Shown here: positions 52,210-63,872 of the stretch, one piece after another | How the letters are laid out: the number at the start of each line of letters is the position of its first letter | How positions within the stretch are numbered: position 1 is the first letter of the stretch | Assembly (NCBI GenBank): GCA_947479455.1 | Contig: CANJZE010000002.1 | Coordinates: 29,458-93,457, forward strand | Source of the DNA: Bacteroidota bacterium | GTDB taxonomy: Bacteria; Bacteroidota; Bacteroidia; Chitinophagales; LD1 | Direction of reading: 5' to 3' | DNA: 64,000 bases | Notes under the pieces: model-generated | What the model saw: the letters and a program-made list of their open reading frames with translations, nothing else | What the model was told of the DNA's origin: nothing | Databases searched by the model: none | Position numbers and translations under genes: made by a program

Positions 52210-52647
52210 TTTAATTTCTTCTTCGGGCTCAAAGAACACTTTCATATTACACGAAGAAATTTTTTCGCTGCCTACAAACACTTTTCCGGCAATAAGTGTA
52301 ACCGAACCAAAAACTTTTCCTTCAATCGTTATTTCGGTAGTCAATTGCTCACCAACATTCGGTAACCGCGAAACCGAAAAGTTTTTTACCTCGCCAATAA
52401 AACCGCGTCTGCTCTTTTTGTTTTCGGTAAAGTCTTCATAACCCATTTTGCAGCCCGCACTTTGCGCCATGTTCTCTAACAGTCCCGCTAACATTAGCTT
52501 ACCGTTTTCGCATAAAACATTATCGGCTTTAAACGTGAACGTGGTGATGCATTTATTCTTCGTCACTTCGTTCAACGAATCAATAAAAACAAAAGGCGGC
52601 TTTTGGGGAATGAGTTGTGTGAGTTGATTTCCGCTGATGGGGAACAT
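52204..52647 (-). CDS. Hot-dog fold 3-hydroxyacyl-ACP dehydratase-like protein
   Basis: LIPQKPPFVFID, GLLENMAQS, GFIGEVKN. Confidence 0.82.
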   Translation of the reverse strand: MFPISGNQLTQLIPQKPPFVFIDSLNEVTKNKCITTFTFKADNVLCENGKLMLAGLLENMAQSAGCKMGYEDFTENKKSRRGFIGEVKNFSVSRLPNVGEQLTTEITIEGKVFGSVTLIAGKVFVGSEKISSCNMKVFFEPEEEIKH

Positions 52648-52669
52648 GAAATGAAATTTCGGCTAAAAT

Positions 52670-52698
52670 AAAAAAAGCCTCCCTGAGGAGGCTTTTTT
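52670..52698 (-). terminator. Intrinsic terminator ending the tRNA array
   Basis: aaaaaaagcctcc-ctga-ggaggctttttt. Confidence 0.8.
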
Positions 52699-52699
52699 G

Positions 52700-52773
52700 T
52701 GACCCCGGTGGGGATCGAACCCACGACCCTCCCGATAAAAAATCGGGATGCTCTACACCTGAGTTACGAAATC
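52700..52773 (-). ncRNA. Full-length tRNA-like element with a rebuilt anticodon arm (TCCCG ATTTTTTAT CGGGA)
   Basis: GATTTCG TA ACTC AGGTGTA GAGC A TCCCG ATTTTTTAT CGGGA GGGTC GTGGG TTCGATC CCCAC CGGGGTC A; intact T arm, acceptor stem with three G-U pairs. Confidence 0.75.
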
Positions 52774-52783
52774 ACTTTTGGGC

Positions 52784-52818
52784 AAAAAATAAGGGCTTCG
52801 CGTATGCGAAACCCTTTG
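52784..52818 (-). terminator. Hairpin plus T tract between tRNA-Lys and the downstream tRNA-like element
   Basis: Minus strand AAGGGTTTCGCATACGCGAAGCCCTTATTTTTT. Confidence 0.55.
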
Positions 52819-52826
52819 TCATTTTG

Positions 52827-52899
52827 TGACCCGGGAGAGGATCGAACTCTCGACCCAATGATTAAGAGTCATTTGCTCTACCAGCTGAGCTACCGAGTC
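52827..52899 (-). tRNA. tRNA-Lys (anticodon CTT)
   Basis: GACTCGG TA GCTC AGCTGGTA GAGC A AATGA CTCTTAA TCATT GGGTC GAGAG TTCGATC CTCTC CCGGGTC A; canonical 73-nt cloverleaf. Confidence 0.96.
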
Positions 52900-52918
52900 A
52901 TTTACTTCTACTTCTTTT

Positions 52919-52986
52919 TAACTCCTCTCGAACCTTCGACCCTCCCGACAAAAGTCGGGATGCTCTACCTGCTGAGCTACAGAGTC
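52919..52986 (-). pseudogene. tRNA-Lys-like element with a rebuilt anticodon arm and deleted T-stem 3' strand
   Basis: GACTCTG TA GCTC AGCAGGTA GAGC A TCCCG ACTTTTGT CGGGA GGGTC GAAGG TTCGA GAGGAGTTA. Confidence 0.75.
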
Positions 52987-53004
52987 GTTTTTAAAAACGA
53001 GGCG

Positions 53005-53035
53005 CAAACATAAAATCTCTTTCCAAAATTTTCAA
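53005..53035 (-). promoter_or_regulatory. Promoter of the tRNA array (-33 TTG, -7 TATGTTTG)
   Basis: TATGTTTG at 53012-53005; TTG 20 nt further upstream. Confidence 0.65.
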
Positions 53036-53081
53036 TAATAGCTGCTTCGTTGTTTAAAATTTATTTCTTTGAAACCTACTT

Positions 53082-53735
53082 ATGGCTCACGAGCATCATC
53101 ACGACCACTCTCACTATCACATACACGCTAACGAACGCAGCACCCGTATTGTGGTTATTATATCATTCTGCACCATGTTGCTCGAATTGTATTTTGGTTA
53201 CACCGCCAATTCAAAAACGCTGATGATGGATGGCTGGCACATGTTGAGTCATGTGCTCGTGTTATTGCTGGCGTGGAGCGCTTACTTCTATATTCTACGC
53301 CACAAAAATGAAATTACTCACGCTCAACAGCACAAGGTTATTTCGCTCAGCGGTTTTGCCAGTGCGGTAATCATGTTACTTATAACCTTGGGCATGATTT
53401 ACGAATCGGTGAAAGGTTTTTTTGATGTAAAGACCGATGTAACTTTTGAAACTTTATTGGTGGCTGTTATTGCAGTAGTGGTGAATGGCGCAAGTGCTTT
53501 TTTTCTTCATCGCGAAGAAGAAAAAACCGATGTGAATTTACAGGCAGCGTATCTGCATGTGTTGAGTGATGTGGTGTTAAGTGTGTTTGCGATTATCTCT
53601 TTACTCGCTATAAAATATTTCGATTTAAAAATTCTCGATTCAATTCTAGCGCTGTTTGGCGCGCTCGTTATTTTGAAATGGAGCGTAGAGTTGATTCGCA
53701 AAAGCTGGAAAGAAGTACTTGAACTTCGGAATTGA
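53082..53735 (+). CDS. Cation diffusion facilitator (CDF) transporter, short form with His-rich N-terminus
   Basis: HEHHHDHSHYH; ANS..L..DGWHM..H; NLQAAYLHVLSD; about six TM helices; no C-terminal cytosolic domain. Confidence 0.85.
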   Translation: MAHEHHHDHSHYHIHANERSTRIVVIISFCTMLLELYFGYTANSKTLMMDGWHMLSHVLVLLLAWSAYFYILRHKNEITHAQQHKVISLSGFASAVIMLLITLGMIYESVKGFFDVKTDVTFETLLVAVIAVVVNGASAFFLHREEEKTDVNLQAAYLHVLSDVVLSVFAIISLLAIKYFDLKILDSILALFGALVILKWSVELIRKSWKEVLELRN

Positions 53736-53741
53736 AAACAC

Positions 53742-56700
53742 TTATCTGAGAATCGTCAAACTTCCTTTATATATTTTTTCGTTGTGACCATCTAAGAAAA
53801 CTGCTTTCATTACATACACACAAACTGAAGGTTGCAACAATTCTCCTTTGTAAACACCATCCCATTTGAAATCAGTTTCTTCCGATTCGAAAACTTTCTC
53901 GCCCCAACGGTCAAAAATCATGATGTTGAATTTCTTGATTCCTGCTTTGTTCCCGAACAACTCGAAGTAATCGTTGTTGCCATCACCATTCGGTGTGAAA
54001 GCATTTGGAGTAAAGATGGTGTGATCTTCTATCACATTTACAGTAATAGTATCCTGCGCTTCGCAGCCATTGATGTCCATTCCTACAACGGTATATAAAG
54101 TTGTTTGCCCTGGTTGAACCGTTACATCATTGCAAGTAGTGCAGTTCATTCCGAAAACGGGAGTCCAAGAATAAGTTGTTTGTGGTGAACCAGTACTTGT
54201 TACATGTAGTTCTGAAGTTGCACCAAGTGTAATAGTTCCACCACCGCTTGCATTTACGTTGAAGGAATTCAAATTGATAATTGTAAACGAAGTATCGAAC
54301 GGACAACCATTTGCATCTTGAATTGTTACACCGTAAATTCCTGAATGAACATCGCTCAAATCTTCTGTAGTTTCTCCGTTGCTCCAATGAAAGGTGTAAG
54401 GAGCCGAGCCATTGTTCACTGTTACATTGATTCCTCCTGTGGCATTAGTGCAAGGCAATTGGTCAGCAGTGCCGTTCACACTCAATTGAGGAAGTGTGTT
54501 GATGAGCGCGTTAGCAATTTGTGTGCAACCATTCGCATCTGTAATTGTCAAGCGATAAGTTCCTGCAATTACGTTTGCTAAATCTTCGGTGGTTGCTCCG
54601 TTGTTCCAGTGATAGTTGTAAGGAGTAGTTCCACCGTTAATGCTCGCATTCACTGTTCCGTTGTGAGCACCTAAGCATGCCACATCAGTTGCGGTAACTG
54701 CCACACCTAAAAATGCAGGTTGTGAAATTGTAATTGCATTAAGCAAAGCACCGCATCCGTTTGCATCGTTCACAGTAACACCATAAGATCCAGCTACAAG
54801 ATTTGAAATTACAGATGTGCTTGCTGAATTATTCCATTTATAAACGAAAGGAGAAGTTCCGCCTGCTACTACAACCGAAATAGTTCCGTTAGAGGATGCA
54901 TTGCAACTTGCATCTGTATGCGTTTCAGATAAAATAAGAGAAGCAGGCATCACTAAATTTTGAGAACCACTCACCACACAACCGTGACTATCGGTTACAC
55001 TTACCGTGTAGGTTCCCGCAGGTAATTGATTTGGATCTTCATCATGCGCGCCTGTATTCCATAAATAATTCATTGGAGGAACACCACCATTTACTGTTGT
55101 GTTTATAGCGCCATTGTTTGCACCATTACAAAGCGGGTCTGTTTTTGCCATAGCTAATTGAAGAGCAGCTGGCTGAATTAAGATGGCAGAACTTGTTGCC
55201 GAACAATTATGTGAATCGTAAACACTAACCGAATAATTTCCTGCAACCACTCCGTTTAAATCTTCACTTGCTCCTCCTCCATTCCAATGATAATTGTAAG
55301 GAGTTGTTCCGCCAGTTGTTGTTACATCTATTGCTCCGTTGCTTCCGCCATTACATAAAACATCTGTTTTTGAATTGCTGATAACAAGAGCAGTTGGCTG
55401 ATTGATTATTGCCGAGCGAACTACCGAACAACTGTTTGCATCGGTTAGTGTGAGCGAATAATTTCCGGCTAAAATATTATTGATACTAACTGTGCTTGCT
55501 GAATTGCTCCACTGATAATTGTAGTTTGTAACTCCACCACTTACAACCGATGAAATACTTCCGTTTGTGTTTCCATTGCAGATAACATCAATTGGCGTAA
55601 GCGTTACTGAAATTGCAGTTGGTTCAGTAATAACAATCGGCTGGCTCACCGCGCAACTGTTTTGGTCGTTAACGGTAATGCTATATGTTCCTGCCGAAAG
55701 AGAAGTTCTGTCTTCTGTATTTCCTCCATCGCTCCATTGATAAACAAAAGGGAATGTTCCGCCCACAATTGAAATATCAATGCTTCCATTGTTCCCACCG
55801 TTACAACTAACATCGGTATGCGTGTTGGTGACTACCACCAGTCCAATTGGCTGAGTAACGTTTACGTTTGCATTTGCAACGCAATTGTTCGCATCATGAA
55901 TAGTTACTGAATAATTTCCTGCAACAATACTTTGAAGATCTTGTGTAGCAGCACCGGTATTCCATAGGTAAACATAAGGGGCAACCGCTCCTGATACAGT
56001 CAAATCAATATTGCCATTGTTTCCGCCATTGCAACTAACGTTGTTGTAGTTCAAACCAATACTGATAGCAGTTGGCTGAGTAACAGCAATTGATTTTACA
56101 ACAGTACAAGAGTTAGCATCGCTTACTGTCACTGAATAATTTCCGGCAAGAATTGCAGCAAGGTCTTCGGTGTTGTAACCATTGCTCCAGTTGTAAGAAT
56201 AATTTCCTGTGCCGCCTGTGGTTGTAATATCTATTGAGCCGGTCATGTTACCGTTGCAAATTGCATTCACATGAGTTTCTGCAATTGCAATTGCTGTTGG
56301 TTGTGTAATTATTTTTGAGAGCGAAGCAGAACAACTATTTGCATCAGTAATTGTTACTGAATAATTTCCAGCTAAAAGATTTGTTCTGTTTTGCGAAATA
56401 ATTCCTGAACCCCAGTTGTAGCTATAAGGAGAAGTTCCTCCGTTTACAGTAAGATTTATAGCTCCTGTGTTTCCACCATTGCACAATACATTTGTTGCTG
56501 ATGCAACCGCTGATAGCGCAAGACTCGGCTGCGTAATAGTTGCTGATGTTGCTACTGTGCACAAATTATTATCGGTAATCGTCACCGGATAATTTCCTGC
56601 TATAAGATTCGTTCTGTTTGCCGAAATAATTCCACCGCCCCAATTGTAAGTATAACCGGGTGTTCCTCCATTCACGCTCAAGCTAATAGCACCGTTGTTT

Positions 56701-59700
56701 CCACCATTACACGGCACATTTGTAACTGAAGTTGTTGTCACAATTTGTGTTGGCTGCGTAATATTTACGTTCACCGCTGTGGTGCAATTATTATAATCAA
56801 CTACCGTAACCGAATAATTTCCTGCCGGAATATTGCTGATGCTTTGCTGACCCGGGCTTCCATTCCATAAAAAAGTATACGGAACCATTCCACCATTTAC
56901 TGTCACTGTGACTGTTCCATTACTTCCACCATAGCACGAAACCTGGCCTGTAACAGTTGTTGCACTTAGTGCAGTTGGCTGACTAATGTTTGCAGATGTT
57001 GCAGCAGCGCAACCGTTTGCATCGGTAACAGTAACTGCATAAGCAGCAGCAACCAGATTCGTTCTGTTTTGCGAAGTAATTCCACCTCCCCAGTTGTATG
57101 TGTATCCAGAAGTTCCACCAATTACATTTAAGTTGATGGCTCCGTTGTTTCCACCGTTGCACGAAACATTTGTTACACCGGTAGAAAGCGAAACTGCATT
57201 GGGTTGTGTTACCGTTGCAGAAGCTGAAGCCGTGCAATTATTTGAATCAGTTGCTACCACGTTATAAATTCCTGCTATGAGATTCGTTCTGTTTTGTGAA
57301 GTAATTCCTCCGCCCCAGTTAAATGCATAAGGAGAAATTCCTCCGCTGATACTTGTTGCAATTGCACCGTTACTTCCACCATTACACGTTGTGGAAGTTA
57401 CAACTGTTGAAACGGAAACCGCAGAAGCAGGTTGAGTAATAGTAGCTGAAGAAGATGCACTGCATCCATTATTATCAGTAACACTTACAATGTAAGTTCC
57501 AGCTGCAATGTTTGTTCTGTTCGGTGTTGTAATTCCTGCGCCCCAATTGTAAGTATAAGGAGAGGTTCCTCCGCTTACAGTTGTTGTAATTGCTCCTGTT
57601 GCTGCTCCGTAGCAAAGAACATTTGTTGCAATCATGGCATCAATACTTAGCGGAGCAGAAGGTTGTGTGATGCTTGCACTTGTTGCAGCAGAACAACCGT
57701 TTTGGTCAGTGGCAGTTACGAAGTAAGAACCACCAAGCATGTTCGTTCTGTTTTGCAAACTGCTTCCATCGCCCCACAGATAAGTGTAAGCAGGTACTCC
57801 ACCACCGGCAGAAATATTTATGGTGCCGTTGTTATTTCCGTAGCAATTCAATGTGCTTGCGCTTACCACATTTACACTAACGGCAGTAGCAGGTTGTGCA
57901 ACAATTGTGGTTTCAGAAACTGAACAAGCATTCGCATCGCTCACCGTCACCGAATAAGTTCCTGCGTTTAACGATGAACGATTGGCGTTCACGTTTCCAT
58001 CGTTCCACAAATAATTGTAAGGAGAATTTCCACCTGTAGTTGATGAAGTAATGCTTCCGTTATTTCCACTAAAACAAGAAATATTTGAAGTCGAAAGTGT
58101 TGTTGAAAGAGTTGAAGGTTGTGTAACGGTGGCTGCAATTGTTGCCGTGCAATTGTTTGCATCGTTTACTGTTACACTGTAATTTCCTGCTGTAAGATTT
58201 GTTCTATTTTGAGAAATAATTCCACCGCCCCAGTTGTACGCATAAGCACCAGTTCCGCCTATTGCGGTTAAATCAATTGCTCCGTTATTTTGTGCATTGC
58301 ACAAAATATTGGTAACCGATGTAACTAAACTGATAGCATTCGGCTGATAAAGTAAAATGCTATTGACACTGCTACAAGCATTTGCATCACTTACCGTTAC
58401 TGTGTAAGTTCCTCCTATTAATCCAGTTCTGTTTTGTGTTGCAATTCCACCGCCCCAATTGTAAGTGTAAGCACCTGTTCCACCTGTTACCGTTAAGTTT
58501 ATTGCTCCGTTGTTTCCACCACTACAAGTAACGTTAGTGTTCGAGTTTGTAACTGTAAGAACTGTTGGTTCAGTAATGGTAGTAGTAAATGTTGCAGAGC
58601 AAGGAGATGCATCCGTAACGGTTACTGAATAATTTCCCGGTGCAAGTGAAGTTCTGTTTTGTGTAATTATTCCTCCGCCCCAGTTAAAAGCATAAGGAGT
58701 TGTTCCGCTTGAAACAGCAAGTGTAATTGAGCCATTGCTTGTTCCGTTGCAAAGAACGTTTGTTACTGTTGGTGCAATTACCGGAGAGTTTTTAATCGTA
58801 ACTACTTTCACTATTGAATCTGCACAGAATCCTCTATACACTACGTGATTTACATTGTAAGTTCCGGCTGAAGGATAAGTGTAAGAAGCAGTTGGTGTGC
58901 TTGCTGTAGCCCCAGCATTTCCAAAATCCCAAAACTGAGAAGTCAATCCATTGCTACCTGTGTGAGTAAAGTTCACTGTTGCATTTGGTGCGCATAAATT
59001 TCCTGTGAATGTAAAGTTGGCGTTGGTGTTATTGCCACTCAATCCAACAAGTACCGAACTACTTATGCTGCAACTATTCGCATCAGTAACGGTTACTGAA
59101 ATATTACCCGGAGCTAAACCATTTTGATTTTGTGAATTCGCTCCTCCATTTGACCAAGCATAATTGTAAGGAGCAGTTCCTGAATTGTTCAACACTGCTG
59201 TTGCTGTTCCTGTTGCATTTGCACAAACACTCGTTCCTGAATTAAGTGTTAGTGTAAGAGTGCTTGGTTGAGTAATTATTGAAGATGAAGTTGCTGTGCA
59301 AAGATTTGCATCGGTAACTGTTACAGTATATGTTCCTACAGAAAGTGAAGTTCTGTTTTGCGTAATTATTCCCCCACCCCAATTGAAACTGTATGCGCCA
59401 GTTCCACCTGTAACAGTTAAAGTAATTGCTCCGTTGTTTCCTCCGTTGCAACTAATGTTGTTTACTACAGGTGAAATGCTGATAGCAGAGGGTTGAATAA
59501 TTGTTGCAGTTGAACTTGCCGAACACAATTTGTTATCGGTTACCGTTACGCTGTATGTTCCTGCTGCAAATGAGGTTCTGTTTTGCGCAGTAATGCCATC
59601 GTTCCACACAAATGTGTAAGGCGATGTTCCTCCGCTTACTGCATTATTTATTGCGCCCGTGTTTGCACTATTGCATAAAATATTTGTTGGTGACAAAACA

Positions 59701-62700
59701 GTTGAAAGTGCAGAAACAGGTTGCGTAACAACTGAAGATGTTGTAGCAGTGCAACTATTCGCATCGCTTACAGTAACTGTGTAAGTTCCTGAAATTACGT
59801 TCGAAAGATTTTGCGAAATACTTCCATTGCTCCAATTGAATGAATAAGCACCTATGCCACCACTTGCACTTAATGTTACACTTCCGTTATTTCCCCCGAA
59901 ACAAGAAACACTAATGTTTGTGGTTGAAAGAATAATTGCAGCAGCGGGTTGTGCAATGGTAGATGATAAAGCGGCTGTGCAAAGATTTGCATCAGTAACC
60001 GTAACCGTATAAGTTCCGACAGCAAGTGCTGTTCTGTTTTGTGTAACAACTCCTCCGCCCCAGTTATAACTGAATGCTCCTGTTCCGCCAGTGGCAGAAA
60101 TATTTATTGCGCCTGTGTTTGCACCGTTGCATAAAATATTTGTTGCCGTTGCTGAAACTGAAATAGCAGTTGGCTGAGTAATGTTGCTGTTTGAAATTGC
60201 CGAGCATCCTAAACCATCGGTCACTGTAACAGAATATGTTCCTGCAGTAAGTGTTGTTCTGTCTTGTGTATTAATTCCTCCGCCCCAGTTATAAGTTACA
60301 GGTGCAGTTCCGCCTACAATCGTTACATCAATCGCTCCGTTGTTTCCTCCGTTGCATGAAACATTTGTATTAGCTGCGGAGAGTGTAATTCCGGTTCCCA
60401 GCTGTGAAACTGAAATTGATTTTGATGAAGTGCAGCCAACATTATCGGTAACAGTTACGGTATAAGTTCCTGCATAAAGTGAAGTTCTGTTTTGTGTAAG
60501 TATACCACCGCCCCAGTTAAATGTATAAGGAGAAGCTCCACCACTTACAGTAAGTGTAATAGCTCCGTTATTTCCCGGAGCACAGGTAGCATCTATAACA
60601 GCTTGCGAAATATTTATAGCGATCGGTTGAGTGATTGTTGCAGAACCTGTAACACTGCATCCGTTGTTATCTGTTGCAGTTACATTGTAAGTTCCTGCTG
60701 AAAGAGTTGTTCTATTTTGTGTAACAATTCCACCACCCCAGTTATAAGTATAAGGAGAAGTTCCTCCGTTGATGGTAACATTTATACTTCCGTTAGCTCC
60801 ACCGTTACAAATGTTATTTGCATGCGTTTGTGAAAATGAAAGTGAAGTTGGCTGTGTAATGCTCACCGATGTTGCAATGGTGCACGCGCGATTATCAGTT
60901 GCCGTTACGTTATAAGTTCCAATGGCAAGATTCGTTCTGTCTTCTGTAGTAATTGCACCAGTCCAGTTATAAGTATAAGGAGTTGTTCCTCCGCTTACCG
61001 TAATATCAATTGCTCCGTTGCTTCCTCCGTTGCACGAAACATTTGTCGCTGTGTTTGAAATAGCAAGAGCAGTTGGTTGTATAATAATTGCAGAAGCAGT
61101 TGCCGTGCAACTCTTGTTATCAGTCACCGTTACGTTGTAAGTTCCTACGTTAAGTGACGTTCTGTTTTGTGTTACGATTCCACCGCCCCAGTTGTAAGCG
61201 TATGGACTGGTTCCGCCTGTAGCAGTTAAATTGATTGTTCCGTTGTTTCCTCCGTTGCATGAAACATTTGTTTGTGTAGTTGATGCGCTCAACACAGTTG
61301 GTTGCGTTAGAGTTGCTGTTGCCGTAGCGGTGCAAGTATTCACATCTGAAACGGTTACTGTAAACGTTCCACTTGCGATTGAAGAAATATTTTGTGCAGT
61401 AGCACTGTTACTCCATGCAAAAGTATATGGAGAACTTCCTCCGCTCACCACTAAATTGATTGAACCATTCGTACTTCCGAAACAAGAAGGATTAGTTGCA
61501 GTTGGTGCAACAGTAATTGCAGTTGGCTGAGAAATGTTTATGCTTCTTGAAACCGTGCAACTGTTTGCATCGGCAACAGTAACGGTATAATTTCCTGATG
61601 CAAGTGAAGAAACATCCTGTGTGCTTCCACTGTTGCTCCAGTTGTAAGTGTAAGCACCTGTGCCGCCACTTACGGTTAAATCAATTGAACCATTGCTTGC
61701 TCCAAAACAATTTCCGTTCACATGAGTTTCAGAAGTTGTAATAGCTGTTGGTTGTGTAATCACTACACTTCGTGTTGTGCTACATCCATTAAAATCTGTA
61801 ATGGTAACCGAATAAGTATTTGCGCTTAAGTTGCTGATGTCCTCCGTTAATGCTGCGTTATTCCAGGCAAATGTGTAAGGCGAAACTCCACCATTTGGTG
61901 TAAGATTTATGCTTCCATTGTTTCCCGCATTGCACGAAACAGAAACGTTTGTTGCAGTACTCGTAAGGTTAGAAACAGGTTGCGTAATAGTATATGAAGC
62001 TGTTACCGAACATCCAACGGTATTGCTCACCGTTACGGTGTAAGTGCCCGCAACAATATTTGTTCTGTCCTGCGAAACAATTCCACCGCCCCAGTTATAA
62101 GTGAAGGGCGCGTTTGTTCCGGTAACAGTAATATCAATTCCTCCATTGGTTCCACCAATGCACGAAACGTTTGTGCTGGTTCCGCTCACATTCAAATTGG
62201 CAATGGAAATTGTTTGCGAAGCGTTTGCTGTGCAACCATAAGCATCGGTTGCAGTCAACGAATAAGTTCCTCCCGCTACTGCTGTAATGTTTGGAGTAGT
62301 ATTTCCATTACTCCATAAATAACTATAAGGCAAAATTCCATTTGTTGGTGAAGCAGAAATTAGAATTGTTCCTCCGTTGCAAATGGATGCTGCCGGAGAA
62401 ACAGTGGTAGCGAGTGTTGGGTGACTCACATAAACAGTTTGCGAAACTGTTTTTACGCAAGCACCAAAGGTCATAGAGCAAGTGTAAGTTGTAGTTACCG
62501 CAGGAGTAGCAATCGGATTTCTAATGTTTGCATTGCTCAAACCAAGTGCAGGACTCCACGAATAAGTAACTCCTCCGCTTGCAATCAATTGTGTTGATTG
62601 ACCTAAACATAAAGTGGTATCGCTTGCAGTAATTGTTGCGGGTATATCATCGCGTATAGTAATAGTTGCACTTGATGAAACTGCACCTGTACAAGGATCG

Positions 62701-63863
62701 AGCGTTGCAAGTGTTACCGTTTCTGCAGGCTCCGTAATTCCATCAACCAGCGGATTTAAATCAATAGCTACAGAAGATTGACCGGCTGGAATCATCACTA
62801 CTAATGGAATAGCTGTGTAATCACTTCCGTTAGTAGCATTGCCGGTAATCGAAAGATTTACATAAACATCTACGGTTTGAATTTGCGAAAGTGTAAGTGT
62901 AAAAGTTCCGCCAACACAACCTTCGTAAGCCGAAGAAAATCCTGCGTAGTCCAATGCAGAAATGGCAGAAACAGAAACAGGATTTGACGTAAAGGAATAA
63001 GCTGAAAGAAAAACTCCTGAATCATAAATTCTATCAGCCACATCGGCAATGGCAATTTTTAAATGATAAACCTGACAAGGAACCACCGATGCAGTAGCAG
63101 TTAATACAGTAGTCATTCCATCGTAAACAATATTTGTATTAACGGGTGAAAGATTGTTGCGATAGTAAGCCGTGTTTGTAAGCGAAGGACAGTTAGAAGA
63201 ATTCCAAGTTGTGCCACCATAAGTTCCCGAAGTTCCTCCGTTTACTGTATTAATTGCAACAGGCAAAGTACCGCCTGGAATAGTTGCTAAATTTTTGCTG
63301 GCATAATTTCCACCACCGGGGTTTGGGCCCGAAATAAAAAATCCAAACACATCGTTGTAAGGTGAGCAAACAAATTCAGGATATTCTTCCGATGCAAAAA
63401 CATAATCGAATTTCAACAGCGGCCCTTGCGGAACAATATCAAATTCCAACACACATGGGTCGTAAATTGTGCCCGTAGTTAAAGTAGAAAGTTGCGCATC
63501 GCCTGATGCAGTAAAAGAAGAGGAAGCAAAGTTAGTGGCTGTTTGCGGTACATTGGTTACTCTACCCGTTGACATTACTACACCACCCGGCATTCCAATA
63601 TTCGAGCTTACGTTGTTGAATGTACCGGTTCCGTTTGCACTGCAAGTAAGCGTATAGTTTGTGATAGAAACACCTGGACCTGCCAGTAATTGCGCCAACG
63701 TTTGCGAGTTAGCGTTTTGAACAACCGCTACCTGCGCTTGAATAGAAAGGAATGAAACCGTTGAAATAAACAGAAGCAAAAAAGCCTTCCGTAACTCACA
63801 AGAAAATCCTTGTAAGATTTTTATTTTTTGAGTGTAATTTCTGTTTGGGTCGAGCTGCTTCAT
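53742..63863 (-). CDS. Giant SprB-repeat adhesin: choice-of-anchor-L-like N-domain, Calx-beta-like domain, SprB repeats, PKD domain and T9SS type B (gliding-motility) CTD
   Basis: YVFASEEYPE..C..YNDVFGF; many C.G..NG.I...V.GG..PY.Y.W...L.AG.Y.VTVTD.N.C units; FWDFGN; TPNAFTPNGDGNND...IFDRWG...WDG...G.LTILR; start 63863 or 63869. Confidence 0.92.
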   Translation of the reverse strand: MKQLDPNRNYTQKIKILQGFSCELRKAFLLLFISTVSFLSIQAQVAVVQNANSQTLAQLLAGPGVSITNYTLTCSANGTGTFNNVSSNIGMPGGVVMSTGRVTNVPQTATNFASSSFTASGDAQLSTLTTGTIYDPCVLEFDIVPQGPLLKFDYVFASEEYPEFVCSPYNDVFGFFISGPNPGGGNYASKNLATIPGGTLPVAINTVNGGTSGTYGGTTWNSSNCPSLTNTAYYRNNLSPVNTNIVYDGMTTVLTATASVVPCQVYHLKIAIADVADRIYDSGVFLSAYSFTSNPVSVSAISALDYAGFSSAYEGCVGGTFTLTLSQIQTVDVYVNLSITGNATNGSDYTAIPLVVMIPAGQSSVAIDLNPLVDGITEPAETVTLATLDPCTGAVSSSATITIRDDIPATITASDTTLCLGQSTQLIASGGVTYSWSPALGLSNANIRNPIATPAVTTTYTCSMTFGACVKTVSQTVYVSHPTLATTVSPAASICNGGTILISASPTNGILPYSYLWSNGNTTPNITAVAGGTYSLTATDAYGCTANASQTISIANLNVSGTSTNVSCIGGTNGGIDITVTGTNAPFTYNWGGGIVSQDRTNIVAGTYTVTVSNTVGCSVTASYTITQPVSNLTSTATNVSVSCNAGNNGSINLTPNGGVSPYTFAWNNAALTEDISNLSANTYSVTITDFNGCSTTRSVVITQPTAITTSETHVNGNCFGASNGSIDLTVSGGTGAYTYNWSNSGSTQDVSSLASGNYTVTVADANSCTVSRSINISQPTAITVAPTATNPSCFGSTNGSINLVVSGGSSPYTFAWSNSATAQNISSIASGTFTVTVSDVNTCTATATATLTQPTVLSASTTQTNVSCNGGNNGTINLTATGGTSPYAYNWGGGIVTQNRTSLNVGTYNVTVTDNKSCTATASAIIIQPTALAISNTATNVSCNGGSNGAIDITVSGGTTPYTYNWTGAITTEDRTNLAIGTYNVTATDNRACTIATSVSITQPTSLSFSQTHANNICNGGANGSINVTINGGTSPYTYNWGGGIVTQNRTTLSAGTYNVTATDNNGCSVTGSATITQPIAINISQAVIDATCAPGNNGAITLTVSGGASPYTFNWGGGILTQNRTSLYAGTYTVTVTDNVGCTSSKSISVSQLGTGITLSAANTNVSCNGGNNGAIDVTIVGGTAPVTYNWGGGINTQDRTTLTAGTYSVTVTDGLGCSAISNSNITQPTAISVSATATNILCNGANTGAINISATGGTGAFSYNWGGGVVTQNRTALAVGTYTVTVTDANLCTAALSSTIAQPAAAIILSTTNISVSCFGGNNGSVTLSASGGIGAYSFNWSNGSISQNLSNVISGTYTVTVSDANSCTATTSSVVTQPVSALSTVLSPTNILCNSANTGAINNAVSGGTSPYTFVWNDGITAQNRTSFAAGTYSVTVTDNKLCSASSTATIIQPSAISISPVVNNISCNGGNNGAITLTVTGGTGAYSFNWGGGIITQNRTSLSVGTYTVTVTDANLCTATSSSIITQPSTLTLTLNSGTSVCANATGTATAVLNNSGTAPYNYAWSNGGANSQNQNGLAPGNISVTVTDANSCSISSSVLVGLSGNNTNANFTFTGNLCAPNATVNFTHTGSNGLTSQFWDFGNAGATASTPTASYTYPSAGTYNVNHVVYRGFCADSIVKVVTIKNSPVIAPTVTNVLCNGTSNGSITLAVSSGTTPYAFNWGGGIITQNRTSLAPGNYSVTVTDASPCSATFTTTITEPTVLTVTNSNTNVTCSGGNNGAINLTVTGGTGAYTYNWGGGIATQNRTGLIGGTYTVTVSDANACSSVNSILLYQPNAISLVTSVTNILCNAQNNGAIDLTAIGGTGAYAYNWGGGIISQNRTNLTAGNYSVTVNDANNCTATIAATVTQPSTLSTTLSTSNISCFSGNNGSITSSTTGGNSPYNYLWNDGNVNANRSSLNAGTYSVTVSDANACSVSETTIVAQPATAVSVNVVSASTLNCYGNNNGTINISAGGGVPAYTYLWGDGSSLQNRTNMLGGSYFVTATDQNGCSAATSASITQPSAPLSIDAMIATNVLCYGAATGAITTTVSGGTSPYTYNWGAGITTPNRTNIAAGTYIVSVTDNNGCSASSSATITQPASAVSVSTVVTSTTCNGGSNGAIATSISGGISPYAFNWGGGITSQNRTNLIAGIYNVVATDSNNCTASASATVTQPNAVSLSTGVTNVSCNGGNNGAINLNVIGGTSGYTYNWGGGITSQNRTNLVAAAYAVTVTDANGCAAATSANISQPTALSATTVTGQVSCYGGSNGTVTVTVNGGMVPYTFLWNGSPGQQSISNIPAGNYSVTVVDYNNCTTAVNVNITQPTQIVTTTSVTNVPCNGGNNGAISLSVNGGTPGYTYNWGGGIISANRTNLIAGNYPVTITDNNLCTVATSATITQPSLALSAVASATNVLCNGGNTGAINLTVNGGTSPYSYNWGSGIISQNRTNLLAGNYSVTITDANSCSASLSKIITQPTAIAIAETHVNAICNGNMTGSIDITTTGGTGNYSYNWSNGYNTEDLAAILAGNYSVTVSDANSCTVVKSIAVTQPTAISIGLNYNNVSCNGGNNGNIDLTVSGAVAPYVYLWNTGAATQDLQSIVAGNYSVTIHDANNCVANANVNVTQPIGLVVVTNTHTDVSCNGGNNGSIDISIVGGTFPFVYQWSDGGNTEDRTSLSAGTYSITVNDQNSCAVSQPIVITEPTAISVTLTPIDVICNGNTNGSISSVVSGGVTNYNYQWSNSASTVSINNILAGNYSLTLTDANSCSVVRSAIINQPTALVISNSKTDVLCNGGSNGAIDVTTTGGTTPYNYHWNGGGASEDLNGVVAGNYSVSVYDSHNCSATSSAILIQPAALQLAMAKTDPLCNGANNGAINTTVNGGVPPMNYLWNTGAHDEDPNQLPAGTYTVSVTDSHGCVVSGSQNLVMPASLILSETHTDASCNASSNGTISVVVAGGTSPFVYKWNNSASTSVISNLVAGSYGVTVNDANGCGALLNAITISQPAFLGVAVTATDVACLGAHNGTVNASINGGTTPYNYHWNNGATTEDLANVIAGTYRLTITDANGCTQIANALINTLPQLSVNGTADQLPCTNATGGINVTVNNGSAPYTFHWSNGETTEDLSDVHSGIYGVTIQDANGCPFDTSFTIINLNSFNVNASGGGTITLGATSELHVTSTGSPQTTYSWTPVFGMNCTTCNDVTVQPGQTTLYTVVGMDINGCEAQDTITVNVIEDHTIFTPNAFTPNGDGNNDYFELFGNKAGIKKFNIMIFDRWGEKVFESEETDFKWDGVYKGELLQPSVCVYVMKAVFLDGHNEKIYKGSLTILR

Positions 63864-63872
63864 GGTCATGTT

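Follow-up and report, generated by a model that had tools for sequence, protein, structure and literature searches.

What are two tRNA-like elements doing on either side of a working tRNA gene, when the anticodon arm of each has been replaced by one and the same palindrome? The question is raised by positions 52671–53035 of a 64,000-nucleotide (nt) stretch of DNA from a Bacteroidota bacterium (assembly GCA_947479455.1, contig CANJZE010000002.1, positions 29,458–93,457), here called the window, meaning the whole stretch analysed. There, tRNA-Lys(CTT) stands between an upstream element (element 1) and a downstream element (element 2), which the original prediction, made from the letters alone, had explained either as the work of a palindrome of the repetitive extragenic palindromic (REP) type that specifically replaces anticodon arms or as tRNA mimics. 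Our analysis suggests that both elements are likely to be non-decoding pseudo-tRNA copies, the typical flanks of a tRNA-associated GIY-YIG nuclease cassette of Bacteroidota, in a unit that here lacks the open reading frame (ORF) of the nuclease. They are probably neither working tRNAs nor decoys.

The TCCCG hairpin in tRNA copies

The unit lies on the minus strand and runs from a promoter-like site through element 1, tRNA-Lys(CTT), a terminator and element 2 to a second terminator (Table 1), so that every part of the layout first proposed (promoter, element 1, tRNA-Lys, hairpin, element 2, terminator) was recovered in its predicted place. In both elements the anticodon arm is replaced by TCCCGAY...RTCGGGA. 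In element 1, a 5′ acceptor strand and a D arm lead into TCCCG-ACTTTTGT-CGGGA, after which GGGTC and GAAGGTTCGA supply the variable loop and the 5′ T-stem strand; the element breaks off in the T loop and is continued by unrelated sequence. Because it diverges after GAAGGTTCGA, it has neither the 3′ strand of the T stem nor that of the acceptor stem. Its Rfam tRNA (RF00005) score of 18.4 bits is under the cut-off of 29 bits, whereas tRNA-Lys(CTT) scores 68.1 bits. Element 2 forms a complete cloverleaf with TCCCG-ATTTTTTAT-CGGGA, and its score of 39.5 bits is the lowest of the 36 above-cut-off tRNA matches in the genome, the next being 48.0. Its acceptor stem contains three G-U pairs and its D stem one mismatch. 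The loops of the two elements measure 8 and 9 nt, or 4–5 nt if drawn on a 7-base-pair (bp) stem, in place of the 7-nt loop on a 5-bp stem expected of a functional decoder. At this locus, all Rfam matches above the cut-off were to tRNA.

These features bear directly on annotation. ARAGORN names two tRNAs at the locus, Lys(CTT) and, for element 2, Lys(TTT); with element 2 also called a tRNA by Rfam, the genome appears to have two tRNA-Lys(TTT) genes, of which one is canonical. The canonical gene, the presence of which had been proposed as a check, was found on contig C2 (120376–120449), where it is preceded by a truncated copy carrying TCCCG-CCTTTTAG-CGGGA. (Genomes, contigs and loci are designated by G, C and L numbers.) A second check concerned the assembly. 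Two studies contributed public DNA runs whose Logan contigs tile the region 52450–53250 without differences; one of these runs may be the source sample. The locus is therefore not an assembly artefact. A junction from 52900 to 53064, which would skip element 1, occurred in three runs and was not counted, as it has 27 letters on one side and unidentified letters between.

The hairpin pattern is not a product of chance, since TCCCG-N3-12-CGGGA occurs at 119 sites in the 3.76-Mb genome compared with 6–19 sites for stems of the same composition. In a sample of 149 hairpins from such loci, with 53 distinct loops, the sixth pair of the stem was standard in all 53 loops and the seventh in 51 (T-A in 38, C-G in 9 and T-G in 4), whereas the maxima in 1000 shuffles were 52 and 48, respectively. 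Both values lie above all of the shuffles; pairs 6 and 7 covary, and selection has favoured stems of 7 bp or more. The shared arm with its compensatory C-G versus T-A seventh pair, first noticed in these two elements, is thus both real and general. Pairs other than Watson–Crick, read on the tRNA-sense strand, were G-T in five cases and C-A in one. The loops are free, all 53 strings being different; they contain no conserved anticodon and often retain part of the old anticodon loop.

Nor is the locus unique, as had been allowed for. The genome contains 14 hairpin copies at seven tRNA loci, each copying the flanks of its neighbouring tRNA. Three tandem 5′-type copies lie upstream of tRNA-Val(TAC), three 5′-type copies upstream of tRNA-Leu(TAA), at least three copies upstream of tRNA-Pro(TGG) at contig ends, and one upstream of tRNA-Lys(TTT); the window locus at tRNA-Lys(CTT) has two, and tRNA-Arg(TCT) and tRNA-Ser(TGA) each have one 3′-type copy downstream. 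Copies of the 5′ type end in or before the T loop, those of the 3′ type begin in the D loop or later, and most lack the acceptor stem. The same palindrome occupies the anticodon arm of all copies, with flanks from different tRNAs. Fresh copies elsewhere keep the cognate anticodon loop in a 6-bp stem (Arg copy TCCCGA-TTTCTAA-TCGGGA, locus L090). Contigs C42 and C26 both terminate within one tRNA-Pro hairpin-copy array, which probably joins them.

Beyond the tRNA loci, the genome carries a dispersed family of 54 hairpins with a conserved 5′ flank, TTTGTTTCA, in the form TTTGTTTCA-TCCCG-N4-10-CGGGA and mostly between genes. Only 46 of the 119 TCCCG sites fall inside long open frames, although such frames cover 89% of the genome. 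Among 40 genomes of the genus, of which 21 carry the family, copy numbers range from 0 to 45. At eight dispersed sites, Rfam gave no match above the cut-off. The number of dispersed hairpins correlates weakly with that of tRNA-type copies within the genus (G000, 45; G004, 38; G008, 12; G021, 2; G009, 0), and this correlation was not used. Dispersed hairpins are often bracketed by short repeats that are purine-rich or have a 7-nt period, as at C13:26650–26900 and C16:69500–69750; all of them are outside the window.

A small GIY-YIG nuclease gene beside the copies

A search of the genome by tblastn with the ORF beside the Arg copy, together with Pfam PF01541, yielded three small GIY-YIG ORFs. 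All three start 36–101 nt 3′ of a tRNA gene, namely Arg-TCT (contig C4), Leu (C9) and Asp-GTC (C10). The C4 ORF, of 82 amino acids (aa), has GIY-YIG (3e-12) as its only Pfam domain above the cut-off and ends 34 nt from a TCCCG hairpin copy. No NCBIfam family matched it above the cut-off, and its best matches in the PDB were the UPF0213 proteins 1zg2 and 1ywl (E 0.003). The C9 and C10 ORFs end at other hairpins, which are set in a T-loop copy of their own tRNA. The C10 ORF (117415–117621, after tRNA-Asp(GTC)) is probably dead, because 36 nt are tandemly duplicated within it and a TGA interrupts its frame; the T-loop palindrome of its 3′ copy, CCCCGAGTACTCGGGG, resembles the published NTSvar core.

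To follow the association beyond this genome, loci were collected from both directions, starting from the hairpin or from the protein. Across the phylum, 16 of 400 other genomes contained the exact motif GCA-TCCCG-N5-10-CGGGA-GGGT, while the reversed motif was found in none of 401. Within the genus the exact motif occurred in four of 24 further genomes, and among the order's other families in two of 16. After overlaps were merged and one match (G365:C2:405539) was left out, 27 distinct loci outside the genome remained. An intact tRNA was present at 23 of them and a GIY-YIG match (tblastn, E ≤ 1e-3) at 15; two of the four loci without a tRNA lie at contig ends.

The protein-first samples comprised 80 loci of relatives of the C4 ORF, mostly from Chitinophagaceae/Chitinophagales assemblies, and 80 loci of its C9-type sister clade. 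In the C4 clade, a same-strand tRNA ends within 300 nt upstream at 52 of the 64 loci with enough upstream sequence (median gap 37 nt), and 40 of these 52 tRNAs are Lys-TTT; an upstream tRNA was present at 36 of 69 C9-type loci. A TCCCG hairpin stands at the end of the ORF in 58 of 77 members of the C4 clade and in 3 of 74 of the C9-type clade, whereas a TTCCCTGCC-type hairpin was found in 18 of 74 of the latter and in 0 of 77 of the former. The type of hairpin therefore tracks the nuclease clade. The palindrome is not confined to anticodon arms and may also stand in for the T loop or lie within the D loop.

These loci define the order of the usual unit: a variable number of 5′ copies, an intact tRNA, a terminator, an ORF of ~80 aa with a GIY-YIG domain, a 3′ copy and a terminator. 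Hairpins lie after the ORF only at 27 of the 52 C4-clade loci, on both sides at 16, upstream only at 7 and nowhere at 2, and one to five tandem 5′-type copies precede the tRNA at 23. Young 3′ copies are nearly full length, and the ORF often stops on the TAG of the copy's D arm or the TAA of its hairpin loop. Intact C4-type ORFs (65 of 80) encode 78–102 aa with invariant Tyr6, Tyr17, Gly19, Arg27, His31 and Glu63, and judging from its sequence the nuclease looks active. By comparison of layouts, the window locus is the same unit minus the ORF. The exact hairpin of element 1 also occurs 3′ of a GIY-YIG ORF beside tRNA-Lys(TTT) in a relative (G021, locus L004). The arrangement explains the recurrent 'scrambled' tRNA loci and the tandem arrays of partial tRNAs in Bacteroidota.

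The closest parallel is with Ssn, a family of single-domain GIY-YIG enzymes (~80–95 aa, with about 94 aa given for Ssn proteins) that bind and cut single-stranded DNA at NTS/SRM hairpins flanking their own genes (Nat Commun 2025, PMC11893778). For SsnA of Neisseria meningitidis, NTS/SRM repeats are also scattered through the genome, and the layout NTS-ssnA-NTS resembles that of an insertion sequence (IS) (PMC11893778). As far as the main text of that paper goes, the systems have in common a small single-domain GIY-YIG gene beside a hairpin repeat that is also dispersed in the genome (here the 82-aa ORF, and 58 of 77 relatives), as well as a CCCG-type stem with an oriented 5′ flank ending in TCA (NTS CGTCA-TTCCCGCG...; here TTTGTTTCA-TCCCGC...). 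The likeness is one of design and partly one of sequence. The word 'tRNA' does not appear in the main text of this one paper characterising such enzymes, whereas here the hairpin lies inside partial tRNA copies and the gene inside tRNA operons; the large family of tiny GIY-YIG proteins with a single domain thereby gains a genomic lifestyle that is absent from that text. Hairpin-swapped pseudo-tRNAs next to GIY-YIG genes were not described anywhere in the literature searched, outside subscription journals and the supplements of PMC11893778.

History of the locus and a proposed mechanism

The tRNA-Arg(TCT) site can be compared in its empty and filled states. In two relatives (G042 and G008) the site is empty and consists of promoter, tRNA, native terminator and downstream gene. 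Here it is filled (C4:2900–3700): after the tRNA and a native-like terminator comes the GIY-YIG ORF. Next, a first copy extends from the D loop to the 3′ end and bears a TCCCG hairpin; beyond another terminator, a second copy, which extends from the T arm to the 3′ end, bears a C9-type hairpin and is followed by the native terminator. The T-loop hairpin of the second copy reads CCTGCCCGA...GGCGGGG and belongs to a remnant without an ORF. The site amounts to two nested cassettes, each of which keeps an intact tRNA on its upstream side and a displaced, hairpin-marked copy on its downstream side. At tRNA-Arg, relatives thus differ in whether a single site is empty or filled, as expected of a homing cassette.

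At the tRNA-Lys(CTT) locus, neither element is present in any relative examined (G014, G018, G044, G054, G003, G042 and G023). Element 1 is absent from six relatives with a syntenic upstream gene, in which the tRNA comes right after the promoter; this was read from the sequences of G014, G018, G044, G054 and G003 and, for G023, from BLAST coordinates only. Element 2 is absent from G042, the only relative with a syntenic downstream gene beside the tRNA, and there the tRNA occupies the place of element 2. The terminator after tRNA-Lys(CTT) in the window is homologous to that after tRNA-Lys(CTT) in the same relative. Similarly, lake metagenome contigs of a related strain join the downstream gene to the tRNA via 60 other letters, without element 2.

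The tRNA-Lys(CTT) gene of the relatives has two alleles, type A in G014 and G018, and type B, identical in G054 and G044. The window tRNA is of type B (acceptor GACTCGG/CCGGGTC, T stem GAGAG/CTCTC). Over its 3′ half, element 2 shares 30 of 31 positions with type A (G014, G018) and 26 of 31 with the genome's own type B, and the 5′ half of element 1 matches the adjacent type B tRNA at 24 of 26 positions versus 23 of 26 for type A. As a separate observation, tRNA-Lys(CTT) of the relatives serves as a hot spot for insertions of other kinds: in G044 (L018) a block of ~800 bp with an uncharacterised ORF separates the tRNA from a 3′ repeat beginning in the anticodon arm, and in G003 (L020) the tRNA is cut after the anticodon arm.

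If the elements are the flanks of a nuclease cassette, the window locus would be a relic left after gene loss or a non-autonomous derivative. By analogy with Ssn and NTS, the hairpin TCCCGAY/RTCGGGA, as single-stranded DNA, is the likely binding and cleavage site of its cognate nuclease. The cassette may spread by recombination, with the near-universal tRNA sequence on both sides serving as homology arms, and its entry would place an intact tRNA upstream and leave a hairpin-marked displaced copy behind. Repair of hairpin cuts through the 26-nt repeats might then cause the tandem 5′ arrays to grow and shrink. At the window locus, element 2 may be the former resident type-A tRNA-Lys(CTT) with its arm swapped, the working type-B tRNA having come with the cassette, and element 1 could have been homogenised against the neighbouring tRNA or be a later product of array turnover. 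We retain two models of insertion, in which the cassette either splits the resident tRNA in the anticodon arm or enters by a double crossover within the tRNA. A simple split of the resident tRNA by a single cassette suits element 2; the 5′ half of element 1, being type-B-like, does not fit it.

A more far-reaching reading is put forward tentatively, as a possibility that we consider rather doubtful: hairpin-swapped pseudo-tRNAs could serve in cis as the sites of a mobile-element class not described so far, which parasitises tRNA genes by means of an ~80-aa GIY-YIG nuclease cutting single-stranded DNA at its own hairpin. Such an element would use tRNA sequence as portable homology arms, allowing it to enter the same tRNA gene in any genome with the working tRNA kept. 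The one copy on C4 might mobilise in trans those units, such as the window locus, that have no ORF; the same pair of nuclease and hairpin might have seeded the 54 dispersed hairpins, and the tandem 5′ arrays would be a record of repeated cutting and repair. If the link between nuclease and hairpin is true, it would provide many natural pairs of a site-specific single-stranded DNA nuclease and its site, and a simple system for studying a selfish gene that uses a conserved host gene as its landing pad and keeps that gene alive.

Several observations weigh against the cassette as the origin of the two elements. There is no nuclease ORF or remnant at the window locus by tblastn of the genome, and six of the seven TCCCG tRNA loci in the genome have no ORF, so that the link to the nuclease is made here by layout only. 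Likewise, 12 of the 27 hairpin-first loci are without a GIY-YIG match, several of them at contig ends. Taxonomy in part confounds the pairing of clade and hairpin, since the two sets of proteins were drawn from lineages that differ in part. The 5′ half of element 1 is nearer to type B, and the simple model of a split resident would therefore need later gene conversion; the 5′ half of element 2 is complete, whereas many 3′ copies elsewhere begin in the D loop. As to the enzyme, its nearest solved relatives are UPF0213 proteins, at an E value of 0.003, and we know of no mechanism by which a hydrolytic GIY-YIG enzyme inserts DNA. The published SRM pattern (HGTCWY N0-2 YYVSBRH N0-5 WNVSBRG N0-2 RNCYNB) matched 0 of 49 dispersed sites and nothing at the locus, and its four matches in the genome compare with 3–6 in simulated genomes.

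Other explanations and known systems

Of the other explanations, the one that survives best is that of an independent REP-like palindrome, moved into anticodon arms by a Y1 or REP-associated tyrosine transposase (RAYT) or another enzyme, with the GIY-YIG genes merely as neighbours; we regard it as unlikely. The original prediction of a REP-like palindrome replacing anticodon arms comes close to the present findings, with the stem marking copies of seven tRNAs as well as the 54 dispersed hairpins; its suggestion of a REP-associated tyrosine transposase as the linked enzyme does not hold. In keeping with a REP-like palindrome, the dispersed hairpins share their stem and the TTTGTTTCA flank and lie mostly outside long frames, their number ranges from 0 to 45 among the 40 genomes of the genus, three Y1_Tnp genes are present in the genome, and six of the seven hairpin tRNA loci have no GIY-YIG ORF. 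However, all TCCCG hairpins are more than 3 kb from the three Y1_Tnp genes, the nearest being 4.1, 6.8 and 29 kb away, whereas the GIY-YIG ORF on C4 is 34 nt from such a hairpin. The hairpin also ends the ORFs of one nuclease clade and rarely those of its sister (58 of 77 versus 3 of 74), and the tRNA-type copies are duplications of tRNA segments, not plain insertions of a palindrome; to our knowledge, REPs do not replace tRNA arms or duplicate tRNA segments. What the REP/RAYT and IS200/IS605 systems share with the present one, in part as summarised in the discussion of PMC11893778, is short multicopy extragenic palindromes with an oriented flank and a small nuclease that reads a hairpin in single-stranded DNA. 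They differ in that no Y1 gene is near the hairpins here.

It is quite improbable that the copies act in cis as RNA, as signals for processing, stability or termination of the tRNA operon or the nuclease mRNA, for example as entry sites for RNase P/Z. All copies do lie within tRNA transcription units, from promoter to terminator, and the nuclease ORF often ends inside the 3′ copy, with a TAG or TAA of the copy as its stop codon. Against such a role, the number of copies varies from one to five in arrays of nearly identical repeats and the copies are not conserved at orthologous loci. It would also leave unexplained why one stem is kept across the phylum and why that stem tracks the nuclease clade.

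Functional tRNA-like RNAs, whether decoys for Lys-anticodon nucleases or decoders with an expanded 8–9-nt loop or a 6-bp stem (for quadruplets or frameshifting), are very improbable, and this branch of the original prediction was not supported. Some features do point towards it: element 2 exceeds the Rfam cut-off and has an intact T arm, a discriminator A and a U-rich loop with UUU; fresh copies elsewhere, such as the Arg copy at L090, retain the cognate anticodon loop in their 6-bp stem; and the bias towards G-T on the tRNA-sense strand (five versus one C-A) fits that strand as RNA or single-stranded DNA. Yet element 1 and most of the copies lack the 3′ acceptor strand and hence cannot be charged, and the acceptor stem of element 2 is weakened by its three G-U pairs along with the mismatch in its D stem. 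The stem is further found in place of T loops and within D loops, the hairpin loops vary freely without a conserved anticodon, and a canonical tRNA-Lys(TTT) is present elsewhere. Moreover, the elements are not conserved at the orthologous locus, being missing from all relatives examined.

Least credible of all are remnants of the att sites of integrase islands at tRNA genes or decaying tandem tRNA duplicates: the former would fit the insertion hot spot at tRNA-Lys(CTT) in relatives (the G044 island with its 3′ tRNA repeat, the G003 tRNA cut in the anticodon arm) but no integrase is present at the locus, and random decay would not give the same compensated stem in the copies of seven tRNAs and in 16 other genomes.

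Williams (2002) reportedly distinguished sublocation classes of islands inserting at tRNA genes, and such islands, as commonly described, resemble the present units in being inserted at the anticodon arm or T loop, with an intact tRNA kept at one end and a partial, displaced copy at the other. The present units differ: they lack an integrase, carry ~250 bp of cargo, occur with tandem 5′ arrays and have a displaced copy whose arm has been rebuilt as a conserved palindrome. Between the 217-aa and 147-aa ORFs that flank the unit in the window there is no ORF of integrase size, and the Arg cassette contains only its 82-aa ORF.

A GIY-YIG gene among tRNA genes also has a precedent in SegB of phage T4, a much larger protein with a separate DNA-binding region. 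SegB is a free-standing homing endonuclease encoded in a tRNA gene cluster, and its cuts leave mostly 3′ overhangs of 2 nt (PMC2330249), which we take to mean cleavage of double-stranded DNA. According to the available text of that paper, the two systems have in common a GIY-YIG gene among tRNA genes, a selfish cassette inherited with its flanks, and a presence that varies between relatives. Unlike the units here, SegB is not known to have hairpin-swapped pseudo-tRNA flanks or tandem arrays of partial tRNAs.

Table 1 Window positions of the features that make up the tRNA-Lys(CTT) unit, in order of transcription
Feature	Position	Strand	Basis and details
Promoter-like site (putative)	53005..53035	-	Sigma-70-type scan and sequence; TTGAAA, 17 nt, TATGTT
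Element 1, 5′-type pseudo-tRNA	52919..52986	-	Sequence; Rfam tRNA 18.4 bits
Signature hairpin of element 1	52943..52960	-	Sequence; TCCCGAC-TTTT-GTCGGGA
tRNA-Lys(CTT), functional, 'type B' allele	52826..52899	-	ARAGORN; Rfam 68.1 bits
Intrinsic terminator (terminator-like hairpin) after tRNA-Lys(CTT)	52791..52816	-	Terminator scan
Element 2, full-length pseudo-tRNA	52699..52773	-	ARAGORN; Rfam 39.5 bits
Signature hairpin of element 2	52730..52748	-	Sequence; TCCCGAT-TTTTT-ATCGGGA
Second intrinsic terminator, 3′ of element 2	52671..52698	-	Terminator scan

At the promoter-like site, TATGTTTG matches TAnnTTTG, which we take to be the −7 motif of Bacteroidota. By eye, the ORFs flanking the unit look like a cation-efflux protein (217 aa) and a small dehydratase-like protein (147 aa). 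Adjoining the locus on the minus strand (53742–63869) is an ORF of 3375 aa with dozens of repeats of ~75 aa rich in 'SCNGGNNG', which looks like a giant repeat protein of the surface or adhesin type.

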